From Acidimicrobiaceae bacterium (GTDB lineage Bacteria > Actinomycetota > Acidimicrobiia > Acidimicrobiales > Aldehydirespiratoraceae): DNA of 64,000 nt. The stretch spans positions 14,807 to 78,806 of the forward strand of contig JAPPJC010000081.1 in the NCBI GenBank assembly GCA_028820455.1. The letters run 5' to 3'. The translations under genes and the position numbers were made by a program. Shown here one piece after another: positions 7,306-54,108 of the stretch; within the stretch, counting starts at the first letter, position 1; each line of letters begins with the position of its first letter. Under the pieces are notes generated by a model. The model was given only the letters and a program-made list of their open reading frames with translations. It was not told where the DNA came from and made no database searches.

Positions 7306-7482
7306 GGACAAACATTATGTGCCCGAGTTTTGTCGGTAATTCCGGTCGATGGTCGAGGGAATCCGCAACGGTCAGGTGGACAAACATTATGTGCCCGAGT
7401 TTTGTCGGTAATTCCGGTCGATGGTCGAGGGAATCCGCAACGGTCAGGTGGACAAACATTATGTGCCCGAGTTTTGTCGGTA
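7306..7482. repeat. Perfect 72-bp tandem repeat, 2.46 copies (X33-Y39-X33-Y39-X33)
   Basis: GGACAAACATTATGTGCCCGAGTTTTGTCGGTA starts at 7306, 7378 and 7450. The full 72-bp unit is repeated without any mismatch. It lies between the nfu start (7187, minus) and tRNA-Arg (7644, plus). All reading frames stay open because 72 is a multiple of 3. Confidence 0.95.
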
Positions 7483-7643: not shown

Positions 7644-7718
7644 GCCCTCGTAGCTCAGTGGATAGAGCATCGGTCTCCTAAACCGTGTGCGCAGGTTCGA
7701 CTCCTGCCGGGGGCACCA
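7644..7718 (+). tRNA. tRNA-Arg (anticodon CCT), CCA encoded
   Basis: Cloverleaf folded by hand. Acceptor GCCCTCG/CGGGGGC, D arm GCTC..GAGC, anticodon stem TCGGT/ACCGT(G) with loop CTCCTAA, T arm GCAGG-TTCGACT-CCTGC, then ACCA. Confidence 0.9.
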
Positions 7719-20689: not shown

Positions 20690-20791
20690 TGTTGACTGTC
20701 TACCACTACCTGTTTTTATTGGCATTTGCTTTTTCCTTGTTCTGCGGTTTGCCGTCTCATCTGTTGACTGTTTGCCACTACCTGTTTTATT
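20690..20791 (+). repeat. Imperfect 31-bp direct repeat, period 72 bp, each copy carrying a promoter-like TTGACT-N17/18-TATTxx; upstream of the first GT4 gene
   Basis: 20690-20720 TGTTGACTGTCTACCACTACCTGTTTTTATT versus 20762-20791 TGTTGACTGTTTGCCACTACCTGTTTTATT (2 mismatches, 1 indel). The second copy ends 11 bp before the ATG at 20803. Confidence 0.8.
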
Positions 20792-20802
20792 AACATAGCA
20801 GT

Positions 20803-21900
20803 ATGGTGCGAGTAGCAGCGGTTGTAGAACAATGTTGGCACAAAGTGCCAGGAGGTACCGCCATCGCTACCGTCGGTACTTTGAAAGTATTAGCTGCTCG
20901 TGACAATCTACAGCTGATAGGTTTGTCGGCTAAGCATAAAAGCTTGCCTTCTCTGGCGTTACCGCCATCTTTGTCGGTGTGTGAGTTGCCGATGCCACGC
21001 AGAGTTCTATACGACAGTTGGCACTACCTTCGTTACCCGGATGTGTCGCAGTTTGCAGGTGAAGTCGATGTGGTGCATAGCACGGGTGGTGTAGTACCAC
21101 CCAAAGGGAATGCGGCCTTGGTGGTGACTGTTCATGATTTGGCTTTCCTGAAGCAACCTGCATGGTTCACTCGACGGGGAGTTCGTTTCGCCACCAAAGC
21201 ATTCGAGCTAGCTCAAGCAGAAGCAACTCTTATAATCGTGCCTTCACAGTCGACCGCACAAGATTGTGTTGACAATGGTGTGCCCTCACAGCGGATACGG
21301 GTAATATCCTGGGGGGTTGACATGGAAACTGCAACCGAAGTCGATGTTCGTGTTGTAAGAGATCGGTATGGCCTACCGGAAAGTTTTGCCTTGTGGGTTG
21401 GAACAGCAGAACCCCGAAAAAACCTTGAAAGCTTGTTGGCTGCTGTTTCACGAACAGAGACCAAACCTCCGCTGGTGTTGGCCGGGCCGCTTGGTTGGGG
21501 TTTGAATTTGGAAGAACTCATTGAAGCCTACCCTGTGGAGGTTATACGAGTGGGATATGTCAGAGAAAACCGTGATCTTGCTGCCCTGTATGCAGCATCT
21601 AAAGTGTTCATATACCCGAGCTTGATGGAAGGATTCGGTTTGCCAGTGCTGGAAGCGATGACACAAGGCACACCTGTGATCACCAGCTCAGGTACAGCCA
21701 CGGAAGAAGTGTGCGCTGATGCCTCTTCTACCGTGGATCCGACTGATATCGAAGAATTGGCAGCTGCTATTGATCTCATATTCACAGACGATACTGAACA
21801 TGCTCGCAGGTCCGAAGTGGCTCGGACTCGTGCTACGCAATTTAGCTGGGCTACAACCGCCAAGCAGGTGCATTCCGCGTATCTGGAAGCTTGCTGTTAG
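20803..21900 (+). CDS. GT4-family glycosyltransferase (group 1)
   Basis: 365 aa. The C-terminal EGFGLPVLEAMTQGTPVITS is the E-x7-E GT-B signature. Confidence 0.85.
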   Translation: MVRVAAVVEQCWHKVPGGTAIATVGTLKVLAARDNLQLIGLSAKHKSLPSLALPPSLSVCELPMPRRVLYDSWHYLRYPDVSQFAGEVDVVHSTGGVVPPKGNAALVVTVHDLAFLKQPAWFTRRGVRFATKAFELAQAEATLIIVPSQSTAQDCVDNGVPSQRIRVISWGVDMETATEVDVRVVRDRYGLPESFALWVGTAEPRKNLESLLAAVSRTETKPPLVLAGPLGWGLNLEELIEAYPVEVIRVGYVRENRDLAALYAASKVFIYPSLMEGFGLPVLEAMTQGTPVITSSGTATEEVCADASSTVDPTDIEELAAAIDLIFTDDTEHARRSEVARTRATQFSWATTAKQVHSAYLEACC

Positions 21901-25938: not shown

Positions 25939-26982
25939 ATGTTAGCTATTGTGCTCGCTGGTGGTTTTGGCACGCGTTTGCATCCTCTCACGCTCACAAC
26001 GCCCAAACAAATGCTGCCAGTAGCAGGACGCCCGATGATAGAGCACATAGTTTCCACCTTATCCGAACACGGGGTAGATAAAATTGTTCTCTCGCTGGGA
26101 TACCGAGACGATGTTTTTCGTGCTGCTTATCCAGACTACCGATGTGCTGGAGTTGAGCTGGTTTATGCGGTTGAAACCAAACCTTTGGGAACAGCGGGTG
26201 CCATACGCTTTGCTTGGGAAATAGCAGGCAAACCCCGCGAATCCTTTTTGGTTGTGAACGGTGATGTCATCACCGCTCTTGACTTCACAGCCCTCATGCG
26301 ATGTCACAGTTCAACTGGAGCTGAAGCGACAATACATCTCATTATGGTCGACGATCCATCCCGTTATGGGCTGGTGTTAGCCGATTCTGCCGGTAAAGTG
26401 GGCAGGTTTTTAGAGAAGCCGCATAACAGTGCTAGTGGTCATTGCGGAATTGCAACCACTTTCGAAGAAGGTGGTTGGATAAATGCCGGTTCCTATGTTA
26501 TGGAGCCTGCAGTTATCGATCGTATACCAGCTGATCAGGATGTGTCGATTGAACGGGATTGTTTTCCATCTATGGCTTGCGAAGACTCTTTATGGTCGCT
26601 GCCTCAACAAGTCTACTGGATAGATGCCGGCACGCCTGAATCTTACCTTCAAGTTCAGCTTGATATACTTGAGTCCAAATATTCGACGGCTGTCCAAGGG
26701 TGCGCGCCTCATATAGCTGAAGGTGTTTCTGTGGGTGCGGGGGCTCGGGTAGAGCGAAGCGTGATCATGGGAGGTGTTTCTGTGGGTGCGGGGGCTCGGG
26801 TAGAGCGAAGCGTGATCATGGAAAATGCGATTATTTCCGACCGAGCACTTATTTGTGACTCGGCTGTAGGTTCTGCAGCATTTGTTGGGGTTGAAACCAA
26901 GGTCTCTGACTTCACGCTTCTCGCTGATAATGCCAAAGCTGAAGCCAACAGGAACCTGACAACTTCAGCGGGTAACTGCTAG
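25939..26982 (+). CDS. manC: Mannose-1-phosphate guanylyltransferase / NDP-sugar pyrophosphorylase with C-terminal left-handed beta-helix
   Basis: MLAIVLAGGFGTRLHPLTLTTPKQMLPVAGRPMI is the nucleotidyltransferase signature. The C-terminus consists of hexapeptide repeats. Synteny with cofD/cofE matches that of mycobacterial Rv3264c. Confidence 0.88.
   Translation: MLAIVLAGGFGTRLHPLTLTTPKQMLPVAGRPMIEHIVSTLSEHGVDKIVLSLGYRDDVFRAAYPDYRCAGVELVYAVETKPLGTAGAIRFAWEIAGKPRESFLVVNGDVITALDFTALMRCHSSTGAEATIHLIMVDDPSRYGLVLADSAGKVGRFLEKPHNSASGHCGIATTFEEGGWINAGSYVMEPAVIDRIPADQDVSIERDCFPSMACEDSLWSLPQQVYWIDAGTPESYLQVQLDILESKYSTAVQGCAPHIAEGVSVGAGARVERSVIMGGVSVGAGARVERSVIMENAIISDRALICDSAVGSAAFVGVETKVSDFTLLADNAKAEANRNLTTSAGNC
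26721..26821 (+). repeat. Perfect in-frame 51-bp tandem duplication inside manC (GVSVGAGARVERSVIM x2)
   Basis: 26721-26770 is identical to 26772-26821, with a period of 51 bp (17 codons). It falls in the hexapeptide-repeat domain. Confidence 0.95.
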
Positions 26983-27003: not shown

Positions 27004-27104
27004 GTTGTGTGCATGGTTGAGTTACATCTCATGCTCAGTTTGATGGGGCGGTAGGCTTCGGGTGCTTCAGTTGTGTGCATGGTTGAGTTACATCTCATGC
27101 TCAG
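27004..27104. repeat. X-Y-X module: perfect 35-bp direct repeat flanking a 31-bp unique core
   Basis: GTTGTGTGCATGGTTGAGTTACATCTCATGCTCAG occurs at 27004-27038 and at 27070-27104. The core at 27039-27069 is TTTGATGGGGCGGTAGGCTTCGGGTGCTTCA. Each X contains a GCATG...CATGC hairpin. The module lies between the manC stop and the galE start. Confidence 0.95.
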
Positions 27105-30891: not shown

Positions 30892-31791
30892 TTATCTACC
30901 ATGTGGTGTTTGATTTCTGTAGTATCCAAGGAGATCGCGTAATGTTGCATCCAAAGAGATTGCAGGTTTCCAGCCTGTAGCCTTCTGCAGTTTTTCCGGG
31001 TTTCCTCTGACTTCCGGGACATCTATCGGTCGCATCAGAGTGGGATCAACTTCTATGTGCATGTCATGAGACGCTTTTTTTAACAGTAGTTCGGCTAGTT
31101 CTTGTATTGTATGTGATTTACCGTTGCAGATGTTATAAACTTCACCAGGTTCACCTGCAACGGCAAGCATCCGATAAGCCCTGACCACATCACGGACATC
31201 CGTGAAATCGCGTCGGGCAGCAAGGTTGCCTGCTCGCACTATTTTAACCCCGGAACGTTCATTGGCTGTTATCTGTGCTGCTATAGATGAAGCCACAAAG
31301 CGGTTATTTTGGCCAGGACCGAGGTGATTGAATGCGCGGGTTCGTATTATGTCTGTCCCCTGTGCGAAACCGGCTTGCAAACTGAGTATTTCAGCGGCAG
31401 CTTTACTGGCTCCGTAAGGCGTTACAGGTCTTAAGGGTGCAGTTTCACTCACTGGGAGTTGGGTGGGGTCAACCTGCCCGTAGACGTCGGCACTTGATGT
31501 GACGAGCACACGCTGCACATTGGAATTGTGGGCAGCCTCGAGCACGTTATAGGTGCCTTCAATGTTCACTCGTAGTGTCTCAATAGGTGCTTTCCAACTC
31601 AGAGCTATATCGGCTTGAGCTGCAAGATGGTAGATGATTTCAGGACGATGATGCTGAAACTCAGCAGCAATTGCGTTGCGATCTGTGATATCGGTACATG
31701 AGGTAGTGACATCGTCACCCAAGGAGCACAGGTGAACCACTAGATGTTTGCCCACGAATCCCGATGCTCCAGTTACCAGTACTTGTGCCAT
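30892..31791 (-). CDS. NAD-dependent epimerase/dehydratase, probable GDP-4-keto-6-deoxy-D-mannose reductase (Rmd-like)
   Basis: 299 aa SDR with VTGASGFVG and TPYGASK. It lies immediately upstream of gmd, with a 6-bp gap. The specific activity is inferred from context. Confidence 0.8.
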   Translation of the reverse strand: MAQVLVTGASGFVGKHLVVHLCSLGDDVTTSCTDITDRNAIAAEFQHHRPEIIYHLAAQADIALSWKAPIETLRVNIEGTYNVLEAAHNSNVQRVLVTSSADVYGQVDPTQLPVSETAPLRPVTPYGASKAAAEILSLQAGFAQGTDIIRTRAFNHLGPGQNNRFVASSIAAQITANERSGVKIVRAGNLAARRDFTDVRDVVRAYRMLAVAGEPGEVYNICNGKSHTIQELAELLLKKASHDMHIEVDPTLMRPIDVPEVRGNPEKLQKATGWKPAISLDATLRDLLGYYRNQTPHGR

Positions 31792-31870
31792 GGTTTCATT
31801 GAAAAGTGATGTGGGCGCAGCATACTGAGGTTGATCGAAGGCCAGTTACCAGTACTTGTGCCGTGGTTTC
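31769..31870 (-). repeat. X-Y-X module: the first 29 bp of the Rmd-like gene region (including its ATG) is duplicated 73 bp upstream with the ATG changed to ACG
   Basis: 31769-31797 CCAGTTACCAGTACTTGTGCCATGGTTTC versus 31842-31870 CCAGTTACCAGTACTTGTGCCGTGGTTTC (1 mismatch). The unique core between them is 44 bp. Confidence 0.9.
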
Positions 31871-32054: not shown

Positions 32055-35000
32055 ATGTCCTCACATTCGAAAGCATCATCCGGCGGCGTACTATCTGTTC
32101 TTGCCGTTGTGGTAGCTCACAACCCCGATGAAGGGTTCGAAGAAACCCTTGAATCTCTGACACGCCAAGATTACGAACAGCTAAGCGTAGTAATAGTTGA
32201 TACTGTTGGTAGGAGTACAGGAGTGCCTGTTGAAGCCACTCCCCTCTCTCCGGATAACGCTGGTAGCTCTGATATGGCTGCCACTGAAGATTTGGATGAC
32301 CCGAGTGATGCCGGCGATCTCAAAAGACGGGTAAGAAGTGTTATACGTGAAGCAGCCATAATCACCGCACCCGGTGTTTCGGGTTTTTCAGCAGCTGTTA
32401 ACACGGTTCTAAGCACTGATCTGCATGCTTCGTTTTTGTTGCTATGCCATGACGACATGGTCTTAGAGCCTGACACAGTTACGAAATTGGTTGAACAAGC
32501 CAAACAAAATGATGCTTCTTTGGTTGGTCCGAAACTAATGCACAAAGACCAGCCAGAAATAATAGAAAGTGTTGGTTACGAGGTTGATCGGTTTGGTGCT
32601 AAGTCAGATATGACGGGTAGCAGTGAATTGGATCAAGAACAACACGACTCGATGCGAGATGCCTTTGCCATCAGCACAGCCGCAATGCTGATAGACAAAG
32701 ATATTTTTGTTCGCATTGGTGGATGCGATCCAGCGATGAAATATCGAGGATATGACGTTGATCTATGCTGGCGAGCGCGAATGGCCGGGGCTCGGGTTAT
32801 TGTAGCCGGTGATGCCAAGGTCCACCACCGTGGACGAATTGCCACATCCTCCGAAGCAGCCGATGACCACTTCACCTTTTTGAATGCGGAAAACTTACGT
32901 TCGATGTTGATTAATCATGGACGTATTTCTTTACTCATTTTCATGCCTCTGGCTTTGTTGATTTCTGTTGCAGAAATTATTTTGGCAGTGTTCACAGGCC
33001 GTATACGGCGTGTTCGTACTGTATTCGCAGATTGGACGTGGAATCTCACGCGCTTGACAGACGTGTTGAAACGACGTCGTGCCAATGCTCGTGTCCGTCA
33101 AGTCCGTCAAGCTGATGTAGCAGCATTGCAGTATCTTGGCAGTATCCGGTTGACTTCATTTATGAGGCAACGCTTTGACAGTAACAACATCGGAAAAGCA
33201 GGCGGTTTCTTTAGCAGTACAGGACGTGGCCTACTTAATTGTTTCAGTATTGGTCAAGCTCGAGTTGTGTGGTTGGTGTGGGTTTTAATCGTGAGTGCGG
33301 TTCTTTTCGGTTCTCGATCTCTGATTATTTCCGGTGTATCAGCTGTAGGGGATTTCGCGTCGTTCCCATCTTCGGCTGATGACCTTTTGAACTCATGGTG
33401 GAGTGGTTGGAGTGAGCGAGAGACTGGTGCCCCATCTTCCAATCTAGGTGGACTGTTCTGGCTTGGTGCTCTTGGTTTTTTGCTTGAACTGATAGGGGGT
33501 TCTATGGGTTTGGTGCGTACTTTGTGGGTGCTGACACCGGTGTTTGTGGGTCTGATCGGTATTTATCACATGATGTCACGGGCTGGTTCGTATAAAGCTC
33601 AACTCGGTGCTCTTATCGCTTACTCGTTAATACCATTGGCACCGGCTTCAATAGCCAGTGGATCGATCGCAGGGCTCGTAGCCTACGCAGTAGCCCCATG
33701 GTTTTTGGGCATGGGTTTCAGTGCACTCGGAATTACGCCGTTCGGTGCTGATGGTGTTGTGGGATCAAAAAAGTTGAAATGGTATGGGGGTTTGTTGTCG
33801 GATGTTTGGAGATTGGGTCTATGTGCTGGTATAGCATCACTTTTTGTGCCGTCGGTAATGGGGCTATTGATCGTCACAGCAGCAGGCTTAATCATTGGAA
33901 GTCTACAAGTGGGACGTTTATCCGGCATATTTCGTCTTCTGGTGGCGACTGTTGCTTCTCTGTTGTTTGGATTGTCAATTGTTTTCCCCTTCACAGTGGA
34001 CATGGTAGTAGCGGGGCCTGACTGGCAACTCTTCGCCGATGGTCGTGATGGCTCCGCAATGTCGGTTTCACTGTCTGAAATTTTGACTTTTACTGTTGGA
34101 CCCAACGATAAGGGACTACGCGTGTGGTTTTTGTTCATCCCCATGTTTTTGCCTTTGTTGCTTGGTCGAAATTGGCGATTTGATCAGTCTGTGCGTTTTT
34201 GGATGGTAGCTTTGGTTTCCTGGGGCCTGGCTTTTGCTTCTCAACACGGCATTCTAGGTGTAGGCCTCCCAGATGTCCATCTATTGATAGCACCCGCAGC
34301 TGCGGCAGCCGCAGGCTTGTGCGGTATGGCTGTTTTGTCGGTTGAACATGATTTGCGCATGTCGCATTTTAGTTACAGACAGTTTCTAGTTCCGATCGCA
34401 GCAGCAGGTTTAGTGTTGTTGGCAATGGGTACTATCGGAATACTCGAGGATGGCCGTTGGGGTCTTGTCGGTAGGGATCACCAAACAGTTCTACGTTTTG
34501 AATCTGAAGACTTGTCCGGTGATTATAGGGTACTGTGGATCGGTGTTCCTGAGTTCTTAGGAGTGGAAGGACGCCATCTGGACAATGGGCTGGCTTGGGC
34601 TGTTACGTCGGGTGGTCGAATAACGATAGCCGATCGTTCCATAACAGCAGATCCGGGGATGGCCGATCCGATCAAGACCACCCTTGAAGGCATAGTGGCT
34701 GGTGATACAATCCGCGGAGGACGCTGCTTAGCTGACTTTGGTGTGCGTTATGTAGTGTTGGTGCATCGTCTGGCTCCAGCACCGTTTCCGTCACAGCAAA
34801 AGATATCCCCCGCGGTCAGTTCTGTGTGGATTGAAGCTTTCAACAGTCAGTTGGACATGCAACAAGTACAAGGTATCAACAGTGCGCTAACTTTGTTGAA
34901 CAACACTTCTTGGGCACCTTCTCTTGATTTGGTCGATGTTGACATCGGTAATGCGAATTCTATGGACGGTATCACCTTCGCTGGACCAACCACATCCGAC

Positions 35001-35258
35001 ATCGCTCCTTCAGTCGATTTAAGGGATACTTCTTCTGTGGCAACGACTTCAACTGATTTTGCGGAGAAAGACTCTTCATGTTCAACAGCTGAGTTGTTGG
35101 AAAATGCAGATATCAGGCTTTCCTACTCATCGCCATGGTGGCGAAAATCAAGTCAGATATTCGGGGTTGCTGTGTTGCTGGTGCTTATTTCAGTGCGGTT
35201 GAGAAGTCGAATGACAATCCGGCAAAATCAAGAATCCAGCAGAATCAGCCAAACATGA
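32055..35258 (+). CDS. Family 2 glycosyltransferase fused to a large polytopic membrane domain
   Basis: 1067 aa. The N-terminal GT-A domain has VVVAHNPDEGFEETLESLTRQDY and LLCHDD, followed by more than 10 TM segments. The stop overlaps the next start (ATGA at 35255-35258). Confidence 0.88.
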   Translation: MSSHSKASSGGVLSVLAVVVAHNPDEGFEETLESLTRQDYEQLSVVIVDTVGRSTGVPVEATPLSPDNAGSSDMAATEDLDDPSDAGDLKRRVRSVIREAAIITAPGVSGFSAAVNTVLSTDLHASFLLLCHDDMVLEPDTVTKLVEQAKQNDASLVGPKLMHKDQPEIIESVGYEVDRFGAKSDMTGSSELDQEQHDSMRDAFAISTAAMLIDKDIFVRIGGCDPAMKYRGYDVDLCWRARMAGARVIVAGDAKVHHRGRIATSSEAADDHFTFLNAENLRSMLINHGRISLLIFMPLALLISVAEIILAVFTGRIRRVRTVFADWTWNLTRLTDVLKRRRANARVRQVRQADVAALQYLGSIRLTSFMRQRFDSNNIGKAGGFFSSTGRGLLNCFSIGQARVVWLVWVLIVSAVLFGSRSLIISGVSAVGDFASFPSSADDLLNSWWSGWSERETGAPSSNLGGLFWLGALGFLLELIGGSMGLVRTLWVLTPVFVGLIGIYHMMSRAGSYKAQLGALIAYSLIPLAPASIASGSIAGLVAYAVAPWFLGMGFSALGITPFGADGVVGSKKLKWYGGLLSDVWRLGLCAGIASLFVPSVMGLLIVTAAGLIIGSLQVGRLSGIFRLLVATVASLLFGLSIVFPFTVDMVVAGPDWQLFADGRDGSAMSVSLSEILTFTVGPNDKGLRVWFLFIPMFLPLLLGRNWRFDQSVRFWMVALVSWGLAFASQHGILGVGLPDVHLLIAPAAAAAAGLCGMAVLSVEHDLRMSHFSYRQFLVPIAAAGLVLLAMGTIGILEDGRWGLVGRDHQTVLRFESEDLSGDYRVLWIGVPEFLGVEGRHLDNGLAWAVTSGGRITIADRSITADPGMADPIKTTLEGIVAGDTIRGGRCLADFGVRYVVLVHRLAPAPFPSQQKISPAVSSVWIEAFNSQLDMQQVQGINSALTLLNNTSWAPSLDLVDVDIGNANSMDGITFAGPTTSDIAPSVDLRDTSSVATTSTDFAEKDSSCSTAELLENADIRLSYSSPWWRKSSQIFGVAVLLVLISVRLRSRMTIRQNQESSRISQT

Positions 35259-45311: not shown

Positions 45312-45801
45312 AACGTAAATCTACTTTCAGAGAGACCAAATTAATGCATGCTACGGCAGTGTGTTCATAATGTGGTGCTGCTGGTTGTACTTGGAAGCCG
45401 GATGGCAACACCCACCCGGCCACCCAGTGTAGCAGTGGACTGAAGCCATACCTGCCGCGGCGAGCATTCAGACTCTCATACTAACCGATAACCAGCCTAA
45501 CTGATAACCAACTGATATCAGAATACACTGACAAGGTAAAGAAGGGTTGGGATTGGTGTGTGTTTCGGAGCGTGCTGGGGTGTGTGAGAGGAACCGTCTC
45601 AGAGTAGGAACCCGTAGTCCTTTCAACCAGCGGCCGCTCTCTGCTTGTTCTTGAGAACGAACCACATGTCGCTGCACGTCTCACCCTCACCAGCGGCGGC
45701 CAGCATCATCAGCTTCAACACTGCACCCCGATCGAACACCGGCACACCGGCACCCCAAAACCCCCACAGACACCCAACTACGTGAAACATCAAGGATAAA
45801 G

Positions 45802-45885
45802 TACCCGGAGAGGGATTCGAACCCTCACGCCCTCACGGGCGGCGGATTTTGAGTCCGCTGCGTCTTCCAGTTCCGCCATCCGGGC
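45802..45885 (-). tRNA. tRNA-Leu (anticodon CAA), long variable arm, CCA not encoded
   Basis: The reverse complement folds as GCCCGGA-TG-GCGG..., anticodon stem GCGGA/TCCGC with loop CTCAAAA, variable arm CGCCC-GTGA-GGGCG, T arm GAGGG-TTCGAAT-CCCTC, and acceptor TCCGGGT (G1-U72). Confidence 0.88.
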
Positions 45886-45973
45886 GGGTCAAGCTACGAT
45901 GGCACATTCTAAGGATAATGTCTTTGTTGGCCTTGTCAGCAGTTTATTGTTAAGACAGTGTTGCTAGGACACC

Positions 45974-46073
45974 TTTCAGCACTTTGTGATCTTTTGACAT
46001 TCTTTGGGAACCGTGTGCGCAGGTTCGACTCCTGCCGGTTTCAGCACTTTGTGATCTTTTGACATTCTTTGGG
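45974..46073 (+). repeat. X-Y-X module: perfect 35-bp direct repeat flanking a 30-bp core that is an exact copy of part of tRNA-Arg(CCT)
   Basis: TTTCAGCACTTTGTGATCTTTTGACATTCTTTGGG occurs at 45974-46008 and at 46039-46073. The core at 46009-46038 is identical to 7681-7710. Confidence 0.95.
46009..46038 (+). other. tRNA-Arg(CCT) gene fragment (last anticodon-loop base, variable loop, T arm, first 3 nt of 3' acceptor strand)
   Basis: AACCGTGTGCGCAGGTTCGACTCCTGCCGG matches the intact gene 30/30 in the same orientation. It has no 5' half and no acceptor end, so it is not a functional tRNA. Confidence 0.9.
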
Positions 46074-46316: not shown

Positions 46317-47540
46317 ATGATAGTATTCATGTATCCGGGTCAAGGATCACAGAAATCCGGGATGGGAAAACTTTGGGTCGACCATCCTTCATGGGAGTTG
46401 GTGGAAGAGGCATCAGAAGCCGCTGACAAGGATGTAGCTGAACTATTGCTAGATGCCGACGACGATGAGCTCGCTAAAACTTACAACAGTCAACTTGCTA
46501 CTTTCGTACTGTCCATGGTGATTTTAGATGCAGTGACACGCCTAGGGATCGAAGCAGCAGGCCACGTTGGCCATAGCTTGGGCGAGTATTCTGCACTTAC
46601 TTCAGCAGGTGTGCTTAACTTCAGTGATGCTGTAGCACTAGTGTCGGAAAGAGGCAATGCTATGCAGGCAGCGGCTGAAGAACGCGAGGGAACGATGGCT
46701 GCTGTTCTTGGTTTGGATGATGATGCTGTGTTGATCGCTTGTAATCGCACAGCTGCTGATGTATGGGTTGCAAACCACAATTGCGCAGGTCAAGTTGTTA
46801 TCGCTGGGGCCCCTGAAGCTATCAACACCGCCATTTCCATAGCAAAAGAATTAGGTGCCAAAAGATCGGTCGTTCTAACGGTAGGCGGTGCTTTTCATAC
46901 ACCTTACATGGCATCAGCTCGAGAACGTTTGTCGAAAGCACTTGCGTGTGCGGAGTTTCGTGACCCGATTGGTGTGGTTGTCGCCAATGTTGATTCTATG
47001 AGACATGAGCGGGGTGTGGACTGGCCTGATCTACTGTTGGCTCAATTGACGAGTCCAGTACGGTGGCGGCAAACGCTTAGCACTCTTGAATCGGTTGGTT
47101 TCACCACTTATGTTGAAATAGGTCCTGGTAAAGTGCTGAGTGGTATGGTAAAACGTGAACTACCTCAACGGCAGAAGTTGGCGATTTCTACGCCGGAAGA
47201 CTTAGACGGATTGTTGGATATTCTGGTGCCACTGTCGGTTCCGGTGCCGCAATCTGAAATCGCACAGCCACAATCACAAGTAGAGGTTTCTGACTTCCCC
47301 ACTTGCGAAGGAGAACATTTTTTTGCTGTTGAACGACTAGTTGTGAGCCCGGCTTCTGGTATTTTCAACATGGGAACTAGTGTGAAACCAGGCACAAATG
47401 TAAGTGTAGGAGATTTAATCGGTAGTGTTGGTGATGTTGAAGTGCGTAGTGCTTTCTCGGGTGAGTTGGTGGGCGTTTTGGCTTTGGACGGTGAGCGGGT
47501 TACGGACTGCCAGCCAATTGCTTGGCTCCGACTGCACTGA
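46317..47540 (+). CDS. fabD: Malonyl-CoA:ACP transacylase fused to a C-terminal biotinyl/lipoyl-like (hybrid-motif) domain lacking the modifiable lysine
   Basis: Residues 1-~290 carry FMYPGQGSQ, GHSLGEYSAL and GAFHTPYM, the FabD signature. Residues ~330-407 read VVSPASGIF...VSVGDLIGSVGDVEVRSAFSGELVGVLALDGERVTDCQPIAWL, which is BCCP/lipoyl-fold-like but without an (A/E)MK motif. Confidence 0.9.
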   Translation: MIVFMYPGQGSQKSGMGKLWVDHPSWELVEEASEAADKDVAELLLDADDDELAKTYNSQLATFVLSMVILDAVTRLGIEAAGHVGHSLGEYSALTSAGVLNFSDAVALVSERGNAMQAAAEEREGTMAAVLGLDDDAVLIACNRTAADVWVANHNCAGQVVIAGAPEAINTAISIAKELGAKRSVVLTVGGAFHTPYMASARERLSKALACAEFRDPIGVVVANVDSMRHERGVDWPDLLLAQLTSPVRWRQTLSTLESVGFTTYVEIGPGKVLSGMVKRELPQRQKLAISTPEDLDGLLDILVPLSVPVPQSEIAQPQSQVEVSDFPTCEGEHFFAVERLVVSPASGIFNMGTSVKPGTNVSVGDLIGSVGDVEVRSAFSGELVGVLALDGERVTDCQPIAWLRLH

Positions 47541-52075: not shown

Positions 52076-52392
52076 TTGATCAGTTCCTTATGCGCTCGAC
52101 TGAATTGATTTTGAAGTTTTATGATACGGGATTCTGCCGGTCGGCCTTTGTTTTGCTGGTTTGCCTTTACAAGTCACAACCATCTTACACTTTGACTAGT
52201 TGCATATTGCCAATATCGGCATAAACATCGATAGTAGGATGCACATCGGCATAGCCTTCATCTCTGTAAGCTCTAATCTTGAGTCACTTGATTGTCGACA
52301 AATGCGTGACACGATGGTTGAATTAAAGCTTGCTGAGCTAACCCCAAAATCCACTAGAGAGCAGACAACTGCAAAAAGCTACGGATGTTTCA

Positions 52393-54108
52393 ATGAACGA
52401 AAAGGAGTCCACGAATAAGAGAAAGTCTACGCCTCAAAAGGTAGGTCGCAGACAGATTCTATTTGGATCAGGCTTTGCTTTTCTCAATGTGGCGATACTA
52501 CGAAAATTAACCCGAGAATCTGATGATCAGCAATCAGTAACAACCTCGGATATCGACTCAGCTGCTGAACTCACAGGCGAGCCGGCAACGAATCTCACCA
52601 GTGGATCAACCACCATAGTTGAATCTGGTGACAGCCCTGAGCCTACGGGTTCTCCTGCTGGTGATGAAATGCCCGGTATCCCCTTTACGGACGCTGGGTT
52701 TGCACCTGTTGTGGATGCTGAGTTTGCAGCAACTACGGGTCAAAGGTTTGATATCGCAATATCAGGTGGACGTGTAATCGACCCGGACTCAGGTTTTGAT
52801 TTCGTGGCTAATCTTGCTATCAACGGCACTAAGGTGACAGCCATAGTCCCCAAGGACGTACCCTTGGATGCCACCACCACCATTGATGCTACCGGACTTG
52901 TTGTCTCACCTGGTTTTATCGACATACTGTCGTACGACCCGAATGGCTATGGAGAATGGTACAAAATAGCTGATGGAGTAACCACAAACCTAGGCATGCA
53001 CGGAATTAACAGGCGTGCTGAACGTTGGTTTGCACAGCATGCAGATGGAGATCATCCATTGCATTTCGGTGGTGCCTACGACAACGCTTTCATTCGTAAG
53101 TACGAGGGATATGATCTCGACCCTTATGAATCTGCGAAGTCAAATGAGATTGCAGGACTCGTTGAAAGAGCTCGCGACAATTTGTACAACGGCTACATCG
53201 GCTTACACATGGAGCCCGAATACACTCCAGGTGTCAGTTATGATGAAATGAACGCTCATGCAGTTTTAGCCCATGAGCTTAAAGTGCCGTTGTGTGTCCA
53301 TGCTCGCTATTCTGACAACCAGCCGCCAGGCACCAACCTCGAAGCTGTTGACGAACTCACGAGAATAGCACTCGATACAGGTGCTCATGTTCATATTGAG
53401 CACATCAACTCCACTGGCGGCACCGGCGTAATGGCTGAGGCACTTCAAAAAATAAGCCATGCCATATCTCAAGGAGCGTCAATTACAGCTTGTGTCTACC
53501 CGTACACATTCTGGGCCACTACTTTGAAGTCAGCCCGATTCACCGACTGGCAAAGCAAATACGGCATAACCTACAATGACCTTCAAGTAGCGGGAACACC
53601 ACAACGGCTAACCAAAGAAACCTTCGACAAGGCTTATCAAGCCAATAAACTTACAGCAGCGTTCGCTATACCGCAAGCTGATGTCGATCTTGCCTTACAA
53701 ACTGATTTTGTAATGATAGGCAGTGACGCAATTCTTGAAACCGATCACAACAACCATCCACGTTCAACAGGTTGTTTTTCCCGCGTTCTCAGTGAATACG
53801 TGCGCGCCCGCAACATTATAGATCTACCCACCGCGCTTTCGAAGATGACGATTCAGCCTGCCCGGTTGCTTGAGAAAGGATGTCCGGATTTACGCTACAA
53901 AGGGCGTTTGGGTATAGGTGCTGACGCTGACATAGTCGTTTTTGACGCTAAGACTGTGTCAGATCGTTCTACTATCGCAAATCCAGCCCAAGAATCAGTG
54001 GGCGTCAATTGGGTACTGGTGGAAGGGCAGGTGGCCAAGAATCCACAAGGACTCGACTATGGGGCAAAAGCAGGACGAGCGTTGCGGTATGATGCTAGTT
54101 CTATTTGA
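52393..54108 (+). CDS. N-acyl-D-amino-acid deacylase-family amidohydrolase with Tat-like signal, atypical metal-ligand motifs
   Basis: 571 aa. The N-terminal GRRQILFGSGFAFL is signal-like. ISGGRVIDP...IDATGLVVSPGFIDILSY is the family N-terminal pattern but with LSY in place of HxH. GMHG sits where GNCG is expected. HVHIEHINS and VYPY are conserved. Confidence 0.8.
   Translation: MNEKESTNKRKSTPQKVGRRQILFGSGFAFLNVAILRKLTRESDDQQSVTTSDIDSAAELTGEPATNLTSGSTTIVESGDSPEPTGSPAGDEMPGIPFTDAGFAPVVDAEFAATTGQRFDIAISGGRVIDPDSGFDFVANLAINGTKVTAIVPKDVPLDATTTIDATGLVVSPGFIDILSYDPNGYGEWYKIADGVTTNLGMHGINRRAERWFAQHADGDHPLHFGGAYDNAFIRKYEGYDLDPYESAKSNEIAGLVERARDNLYNGYIGLHMEPEYTPGVSYDEMNAHAVLAHELKVPLCVHARYSDNQPPGTNLEAVDELTRIALDTGAHVHIEHINSTGGTGVMAEALQKISHAISQGASITACVYPYTFWATTLKSARFTDWQSKYGITYNDLQVAGTPQRLTKETFDKAYQANKLTAAFAIPQADVDLALQTDFVMIGSDAILETDHNNHPRSTGCFSRVLSEYVRARNIIDLPTALSKMTIQPARLLEKGCPDLRYKGRLGIGADADIVVFDAKTVSDRSTIANPAQESVGVNWVLVEGQVAKNPQGLDYGAKAGRALRYDASSI

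Follow-up and report, generated by a model that had tools for sequence, protein, structure and literature searches.

The 64-kb stretch of DNA analysed here (hereafter the window) comes from contig JAPPJC010000081.1 of the Acidimicrobiaceae bacterium assembly GCA_028820455.1. Between its tRNA-Leu(CAA) and fabD genes, at positions 45974–46073, lies a short module in which a piece of a tRNA gene is framed by two identical 35-bp sequences. We denote this module X–Y–X: a 35-bp sequence X, a 30-bp insert Y that copies part of the tRNA-Arg(CCT) gene exactly, and X once more. Comparison of its sequence with that of a sister strain shows a recent gain of 65 bp, composed of the 30-bp insert and a 35-bp target duplication, after the two strains split. 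A twin of equal dimensions stands elsewhere in the window. The blunt junctions, the equal 35-bp duplications, the inserts of 30 and 31 bp and the tRNA-gene donor favour an integration reaction of the Cas1–Cas2 type, the reaction by which CRISPR arrays gain their spacers.

The left copy of X (X1) occupies 45974–46008 and the right copy (X2) 46039–46073, with Y in between at 46009–46038, all on the plus strand. The two copies of X (TTTCAGCACTTTGTGATCTTTTGACATTCTTTGGG) are identical at 35 of 35 positions. Y (AACCGTGTGCGCAGGTTCGACTCCTGCCGG) is identical at 30 of 30 positions to 7681–7710, a segment inside the tRNA-Arg(CCT) gene (7644–7718, plus strand; detected by both ARAGORN and Rfam), and has the same orientation. 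The coordinates and sequences of X, Y and tRNA-Arg in an earlier description made from the letters alone, the sequence-only reading, were all correct on re-check. Because the bases beside the two X copies differ (c and g on the left, a and t on the right), the lengths are exact, 35 bp for X and 30 bp for Y. Beyond its two copies, X has no match in the window at up to three mismatches, and none arose in 100 shuffles; Y likewise has no copy in the window other than 7681–7710 at that threshold, and none in shuffles. When the cloverleaf is parsed by hand, Y covers tRNA positions A38 to G68, that is, the last base of the anticodon loop, the 3′ strand of the anticodon stem, the variable loop, the whole T arm and three acceptor bases, the same extent that the sequence-only reading had assigned to it. 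The donor lies 38 kb from the module, on the same replicon and in direct orientation, with CTCCTA on its 5′ side and GGGCACCA on its 3′ side. Written out across the junctions, the donor is CTCCTA–Y–GGGCACC, the target TTTGGG–Y–TTTCAG and the empty site GACACC–X–TTGATG. Read directly, the donor and target contexts have no microhomology at either junction on either strand.

The direction of change is provided by the sister strain, a 19-kb Logan contig from run SRR33343633 (L011/L012) that is 93–94% identical to the window. It and the other related-strain contigs were reached through variant proteins from cluster look-ups. At the insertion site the sister strain reads ...GATGACACC – TTTTAGCATCTTGTAATCTTTTGACATTCTTCGGG – TTGGTGTT..., which is the left flank, a single X and the right flank. 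This single X (L011 126–160) carries 5 substitutions in its 35 positions and is aligned by BLAST to both X1 and X2. The spacer beside the module is only 83% identical between the two strains. Because X1 and X2 nevertheless agree at every position, as do Y and the tRNA gene, the change is a gain in the window lineage, not a loss in the sister strain. A module older than the split would be expected to show about eight differences over the 65 comparisons, against none seen. The sequence-only reading had suggested looking for an empty site, and had proposed that a short foreign piece entered with duplication of a 35-bp target instead of by a one-step tandem duplication; the L011 site, with one diverged X and no Y, bears this out. 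It had also considered that relatives might carry a full second tRNA-Arg gene at this position. None is present in the sister strain or in two more distant relatives (about 68% FabD identity). A slippage-type tandem duplication was rejected: the module amounts to only 1.54 copies of its unit, Y is non-local and missing from the empty site, and the junctions lack microhomology.

The module recurs in independent data. It stands unchanged in L001, an ENA scaffold of this sample, and in L008, a contig of the separate ENA assembly ERZ25069580, which is 99.8% identical to the window over 8.3 kb and differs from it elsewhere by indels of 13, 22 and 33 bp. The Logan k=31 contig L002, built from raw reads (SRR10996926), begins at 46044, position 6 of X2. 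The first 31-mer unique to X2 and its right flank starts at this base, where two continuations of X in the reads would force a de Bruijn graph to break. Mis-assembly, a concern voiced in the sequence-only reading, is thus countered by two further assemblies and by the break positions in the raw-read contigs. An assembly artefact, through a graph cycle or a chimeric join during metagenome assembly, could be entertained given that the source is a metagenome-assembled genome (MAG) and that the three exact modules of the window total 100–101 bp each, which hints at an effect of k-mer or read length (all window modules total 99–105 bp). We regard it as exceedingly improbable. The same module is found in an ENA scaffold whose length differs and in another assembly that has single-nucleotide polymorphisms and indels of its own. 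At both modules with 35-bp repeats the k=31 contigs are broken at the expected base, and they pass uninterrupted through one module with exact arms of less than 31 bp. Finally, the arms of the older modules described below extend further in relatives, so a total near 100 bp is not a rule, and the agreement among the three exact modules may be a coincidence. A k-mer or read-length artefact was dropped on these grounds: full reproduction of one module by k=31 contigs, recovery of the finding in a different assembly and longer arms of older modules in relatives.

The twin lies 19 kb from the main module, in the spacer between an NDP-sugar (nucleoside diphosphate sugar) synthase gene and galE, upstream of the latter. 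Its left copy, X′1 (GTTGTGTGCATGGTTGAGTTACATCTCATGCTCAG), occupies 27004–27038; its right copy, X′2, occupies 27070–27104 and is identical to X′1 at 35 of 35 positions; and a 31-bp insert, Y′, fills 27039–27069, all on the plus strand. The sister strain has a single 35-mer here (L012 216–248) and no Y′. The raw-read Logan contig L010 begins at 27075, again position 6 of the right copy, the same k=31 break signature as at the main module. The twin is a second, independent event of equal dimensions, a 35-bp duplication with a 31-bp insert. Y′ has no donor in the window, no match in GTDB representatives, IMG/VR or JGI metagenomes, and no match in Rfam. Compared position by position by hand in both orientations, X and X′ are about 31% identical and share no motif. 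Both end in G, a weak likeness given the reported preference for this base.

The two recent modules are part of a larger set. A short-range direct-repeat scan of the whole window returned six loci, against about 0.1 expected from shuffles. Upstream of tRNA-Arg by about 160 bp, at 7306–7482 (plus strand), an older module with a 33-bp arm and a 39-bp insert has since been amplified to 2.46 exact copies with a 72-bp period. The sister strain (L014) has 1.46 copies, an arm–insert–arm, and the copy number is polymorphic. The unit of this array has no match in Rfam, and its predicted fold is no better than those of shuffles. Another older module, at 20690–20788 (plus strand), has arms of about 36 bp that are 93% identical and a 72-bp period, and is shared with the related contig L013. 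A third, at 31769–31870 (plus strand) upstream of a GDP-mannose-dehydratase-like gene, has arms of up to 47 bp and a 73-bp period and is shared with L012 (4895–5000); the arms, of up to 47 nucleotides (nt), align between the strains while the middle, about 25 bp, is unalignable, and different sub-segments of the arms have been homogenised in each strain. The raw-read k=31 contig L010 reproduces this locus at 100%. The sixth locus, at 26721–26821, is a plain, exact, in-frame tandem duplication of 51 bp (17 codons) within the stretch of the NDP-sugar synthase gene (25939–26982) that encodes C-terminal hexapeptide repeats. The ENA scaffold is interrupted within this duplication, at 26774, and the sister strain appears to share it, as its L012 contig begins at 26792, a predicted k=31 break. 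Only the NCBI MAG has a record of the full-length, 347-aa NDP-sugar synthase.

Relatives add further events. The contig L013 (run SRR32085981) has a module of its own that the window is without: it lies at L013 4901–5007 on the reverse strand, orthologous to about 20790–20822 of the window, and combines an arm of about 39–40 bp with a filler of about 27 bp, a period of 66 bp and an 11-bp tandem stutter. Periods are 65, 66 and 66 bp for the three lineage-specific events and 72, 72 and 73 bp for the three older ones; across all events that contain a filler the arms measure 33–47 bp and the inserts 26–47 bp. Neither the four other inserts of the window nor the L013 insert has a donor within 64 kb beyond chance matches (up to 14 nt). 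Plain tandem duplications of 12, 13, 15, 15 and 33 bp, with blunt junctions free of microhomology, are a further difference between the strains. One 33-bp tandem duplication with blunt junctions, at L008 7253–7318 (window 52389–52421), spans the start codon of an amidohydrolase gene, whose product is 582 aa against 571 aa. Between the other strains the blunt duplications measure 12–15 bp. Structured RNA at the modules was sought in Rfam at the gathering threshold over the whole window, and at E ≤ 10 at two loci, and none was found. The sequence-only reading had treated the module at 45974–46073 as a single case. The geometry that it described holds; its singularity does not, given the twin and the older modules in the same window.

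To our knowledge, the only enzyme that combines inserts of about 30 bp with staggers of about 35 bp is the CRISPR adaptation integrase, Cas1–Cas2. Our tentative preference, held at somewhat less than even confidence, is that a stray integration of the Cas1–Cas2 type at a non-CRISPR site made the module. A short, pre-cut fragment would use its two 3′ ends to attack opposite strands of the target 35 bp apart; filling in and ligation of the single-stranded gaps left behind would yield X–Y–X. The same integrase-type reaction would lie behind both the main module and the twin. X is ordinary spacer DNA turned into a repeat by the event, not a CRISPR repeat. Set against their empty sites, both events consist of an insertion and a repeat-sized duplication, 30 + 35 bp at the main module (L011) and 31 + 35 bp at the twin (L012). 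Such agreement between two independent events is ruler-like and speaks for Cas1–Cas2. The periods of 65–66 and 72–73 bp fall within the normal range for a CRISPR repeat plus spacer.

The biochemistry of adaptation offers precedents for this reaction. In vitro, full-site integration by P. furiosus Cas1–Cas2 takes place at non-CRISPR sites, the paired attacks lying one repeat length from each other (PMC6698737), and in type II-A systems a ruler sets the second attack (PMC6895254). Formation of new CRISPR units at such sites in vivo (neo-CRISPR) is attributed to Nivala et al. 2018, at least as that work is cited in bioRxiv 10.1101/148544 and PMC6698737. A donor inside a tRNA gene also fits known prespacer sampling. 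The sequence-only reading had considered a tRNA-derived spacer unusual; for Cas1–Cas2 this does not hold, since in two experimental studies type III-A Cas1–Cas2 alone sampled tRNA and rRNA genes preferentially and owed to them a large part of its new spacers, with no preference for orientation or for a protospacer-adjacent motif (PAM) (PMC8860593, PMC8860600). In the same studies autoimmunity removed such spacers from functional arrays only, and an ectopic unit whose "repeat" goes unrecognised would presumably escape such purging.

Several observations weigh against an integration of this kind. Among the 40 open reading frames (ORFs) of the window covered by Pfam scans, none encodes a Cas protein, Ku, LigD, an integrase or a reverse transcriptase (RT), and the enzyme is one that we infer entirely. 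X and X′ lack a common motif and a repeat-like fold, and off-target sites of Cas1–Cas2 in vitro resemble the true repeat. The duplication length is 35 bp in both events of the window lineage, but about 39–40 bp in L013 and 33–47 bp in the older modules, one of which has 47-bp arms. With its arm of that length, its filler of about 27 bp and its stutter, the L013 event looks more like the work of a polymerase or of end joining. The frequent blunt tandem duplications of 12–33 bp imply that a general duplication process is active in these strains, and X–Y–X modules could be its filler-containing subclass. Finally, a second recent event within 64 kb implies a high genome-wide rate for an off-target reaction that is normally rare.

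Alongside Cas1–Cas2 integration, the other leading candidate, also named in the sequence-only reading, is end joining with filler capture. A double-strand break with nicks 35 bp apart on opposite strands would have its 5′ overhangs filled in, for instance by the polymerase domain of LigD, and a stray 30-bp fragment would be ligated between the blunt ends. Fill-in of 5′ overhangs by Ku/LigD non-homologous end joining (NHEJ) is established in Actinomycetota, and the blunt junctions without microhomology are what it would leave. The plain blunt duplications of 12 to 33 bp between strains are expected of fill-in without a filler, the module arms vary in length (33–47 bp), and one process, with or without filler, could account for everything. 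Yet end joining leaves unexplained why two events fall at exactly 35 bp with 30- and 31-bp inserts, and why all six inserts cluster at 26–47 bp with periods at 65–66 and 72–73 bp. We know of no source of staggered breaks of 30–47 nt, ku and ligD were not found in the window, and a random genomic filler would fall wholly inside a tRNA gene with an a priori chance of about 0.1%. On balance we consider end joining unlikely, if still a serious contender. Replicative template switching, in the manner of fork stalling and template switching or microhomology-mediated break-induced replication (FoSTeS/MMBIR), would have a nascent strand copy X, jump to tRNA-Arg for 30 nt, return upstream of X and copy it again, leaving a tandem duplication whose junction holds a templated insertion. 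It would explain why Y reproduces exactly, and in direct orientation, a template 38 kb off on the same replicon; the L013 module, which contains a partial re-copy of its flank and arm start in addition to the stutter, is typical of serial switching; and short tandem duplications are frequent in the clade. However, microhomology is missing at both switch points on either strand, the remaining inserts lack a local template within tens of kilobases, and equal 35-bp arms in two events are not predicted. Local template switching is disfavoured because of these first two points, and we rate it less probable again than end joining.

The boundaries of Y invite two further explanations that start from the tRNA. 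In one, mature tRNA-Arg(CCU) or its 3′ half would be reverse-transcribed, by an enzyme of the RT–Cas1 type or by target priming, and inserted at a 35-bp staggered cut. The first base of Y is A38, directly 3′ of A37, and N6-threonylcarbamoyladenosine (t6A), a modification that blocks reverse transcriptases, is expected at A37 in a tRNA that decodes AGG. The anticodon loop is also where anticodon nucleases cut, tRNAs are the most abundant small RNAs, and RT–Cas1 systems take up spacers from RNA. Yet the argument from the A38 boundary is post hoc, with a chance probability of about 2–6%; Y stops at G68 without reaching the 3′ end of the tRNA; and a tRNA source is already accounted for by the DNA-level sampling of such genes that type III-A Cas1–Cas2 shows. 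The window has no RT gene, and Y′ matches no known RNA family in Rfam. An RNA intermediate at the main module accordingly seems improbable, more so than template switching. In the other explanation, Y would be a remnant of an integrative element that targets tRNA genes (attL...attR), or of a decayed duplicate of the tRNA-Arg gene. Attachment (att) cores usually look like a partial copy of a tRNA 3′ part, in direct orientation downstream of the tRNA gene and starting in the anticodon loop, and Y has just this appearance relative to tRNA-Arg. But the 38 kb between the Y copies hold housekeeping genes, among them ahcY, manA, pmm, ftsH, cofD/cofE, uvrB, coaE, rpsA, polA and genes for cell-wall glycosyltransferases, and no integrase at a flat guanine-plus-cytosine (GC) content, and an attL/attR island there was dropped for these reasons. 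Distant relatives keep the order polA...tRNA-Leu/fabD across this position, the match to the tRNA gene breaks off 8 nt short of its 3′ end and is followed by X, not by tRNA, the site in the sister strain is cleanly empty, and tRNA-Arg stands there in no relative examined. We give an element remnant or gene decay almost no weight.

Comparison with known systems helps to place the Cas1–Cas2 reading. X does not belong to an established repeat or mobile-element family: it has no match in 185,579 GTDB species representatives, in IMG/VR or in JGI metagenomes, the last scanned with a degenerate pattern that covers both strain variants, and it has no repeat-like fold. Nor is the locus a canonical CRISPR array, X being present only twice in the window (at up to three mismatches) and once at the sister-strain site. 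Its likeness is to neo-CRISPR integration, with a spacer-sized piece of 30–31 bp placed at a non-CRISPR site, a repeat-sized duplication of 35 bp yielding repeat–spacer–repeat, blunt junctions, an AT-rich intergenic target and a duplication length common to two events. It departs from that process in that its two targets have no recognisable common motif, the 64-kb window holds no cas genes, other modules of the clade have other arm lengths and the density of natural events appears high. With the type III-A sampling of tRNA and rRNA genes described in S. thermophilus (PMC8860593) and S. epidermidis (PMC8860600), the module shares an insert that lies wholly in the transcribed part of a tRNA gene, including the hairpin of the T arm, and the lack of a PAM or orientation requirement; a spacer against a self tRNA would survive only if unused for interference, as it would be in an ectopic unit that does not function. 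Those spacers, in contrast, entered genuine arrays of laboratory strains. Repeats of type III-A are about 36–37 nt long and the spacers usually about 33–40 nt, against 35 and 30–31 here. Capture of DNA during Ku/LigD fill-in has in common with the module the blunt junctions free of microhomology and the presence of plain short tandem duplications in the same strains, but it does not predict constant lengths. The documented duplications from NHEJ fill-in that we know of extend over a few nt, and we are aware of no process that makes staggered breaks of 35 nt. Lastly, the module resembles the "questionable" two-repeat CRISPR predictions and partial tandem repeats, being a 35–30–35 unit with one spacer, no adjacent cas genes and a repeat not found elsewhere; it differs from them in its identified donor and its empty site in the sister strain, which make it an insertion with target duplication and not a decayed tandem repeat.

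The surroundings of the module are those of a housekeeping region with a flat GC content of about 47%. Pfam assigns ahcY, manA, pmm, ftsH, cell-wall glycosyltransferases, cofD/cofE, gmd, uvrB, coaE, rpsA and polA to its left, and fabD, fabH, fabG, rodA, PBP2 and mreB to its right. The left neighbour of the insertion site is tRNA-Leu(CAA) (45801–45885, minus strand; ARAGORN and Rfam), for which a consensus scan places a promoter-like site at 45939–45912 on the minus strand, about 35 bp from X1. The insert lies about 35 bp upstream of that site, and its effect on the cell is probably small. The sequence-only reading had further proposed that the TTGACA hexamer in X may affect promoter architecture; the consensus scan found no matching −10 box, and a promoter made by this hexamer was dropped. 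At the donor gene, position 1 of the sister-strain Logan contig L014 (window 7673) is a contig end inside tRNA-Arg(CCT), at the anticodon stem. The assembly graph of that sample may fork there, for instance because a further tRNA copy resembles this one or because some cells have an integrated element.

To the right, fabD begins at 46317. The FabD proteins next closest to that of the window (MDE0269512.1) are about 69% identical. In distant relatives with about 68% FabD identity the gene order from polA through tRNA-Leu(CAA) to fabD continues across the insertion site, and in two of them the spacers are short and GC-rich, without X, Y or tRNA-Arg. FabD of the window is 407 aa long, of which the acyltransferase domain takes up only residues 3–285; FabD relatives in Acidimicrobiia are also long, about 391 aa, so that the family has an uncharacterised C-terminal extension of about 100 aa. 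The spacer between polA and tRNA-Leu (45312–45800) exceeds its sister-strain counterpart by about 200 bp, with extra blocks of 16, 44, 74 and 67 bp, has a higher GC content and includes a 21-nt stretch (45679–45699) that is 81% similar to part of tRNA-Leu. At this position more distant relatives have a gene for an ANTAR response regulator and a 95-aa ORF, and the spacer may be gene-decay debris. Elsewhere in the window, an in-frame segment of 132 bp (34928–35059) of a 1067-aa glycosyltransferase-like gene is missing in the sister strain, where the protein has 1024 aa.

These modules are of interest for the empty sites that serve as natural controls, for the twin and for the tRNA origin of Y, and not for a demonstrated function; the sequences carry no sign that the X–Y–X unit is processed or functional. 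Off-target integration is one proposed route to new CRISPR arrays. One preprint reports it as shown in the laboratory and the natural evidence for it as only circumstantial (bioRxiv 10.1101/148544). The events described here are natural and datable: the unfilled target survives in a sister strain, the donor is identified, and the same 64 kb hold another event of equal size. Conceivably, though we would call it doubtful, the clade has an active integrase of the Cas1 family, maybe coupled to an RT, that repeatedly inserts pieces of about 30 bp from host tRNA and other sources at non-CRISPR intergenic sites. Proto-CRISPR units would then be born in nature, the array at 7306–7482 would be one that has been amplified to three repeats, and the start of Y at A38 would mark an RNA intermediate. 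If the genome holds a matching Cas1–Cas2, the modules would be well-controlled natural examples of off-target integration, and their tRNA origin would extend the tRNA-gene sampling seen in the laboratory to wild populations. If it holds no cas genes, the same data would define a size-constrained process of insertion and duplication in Actinomycetota.

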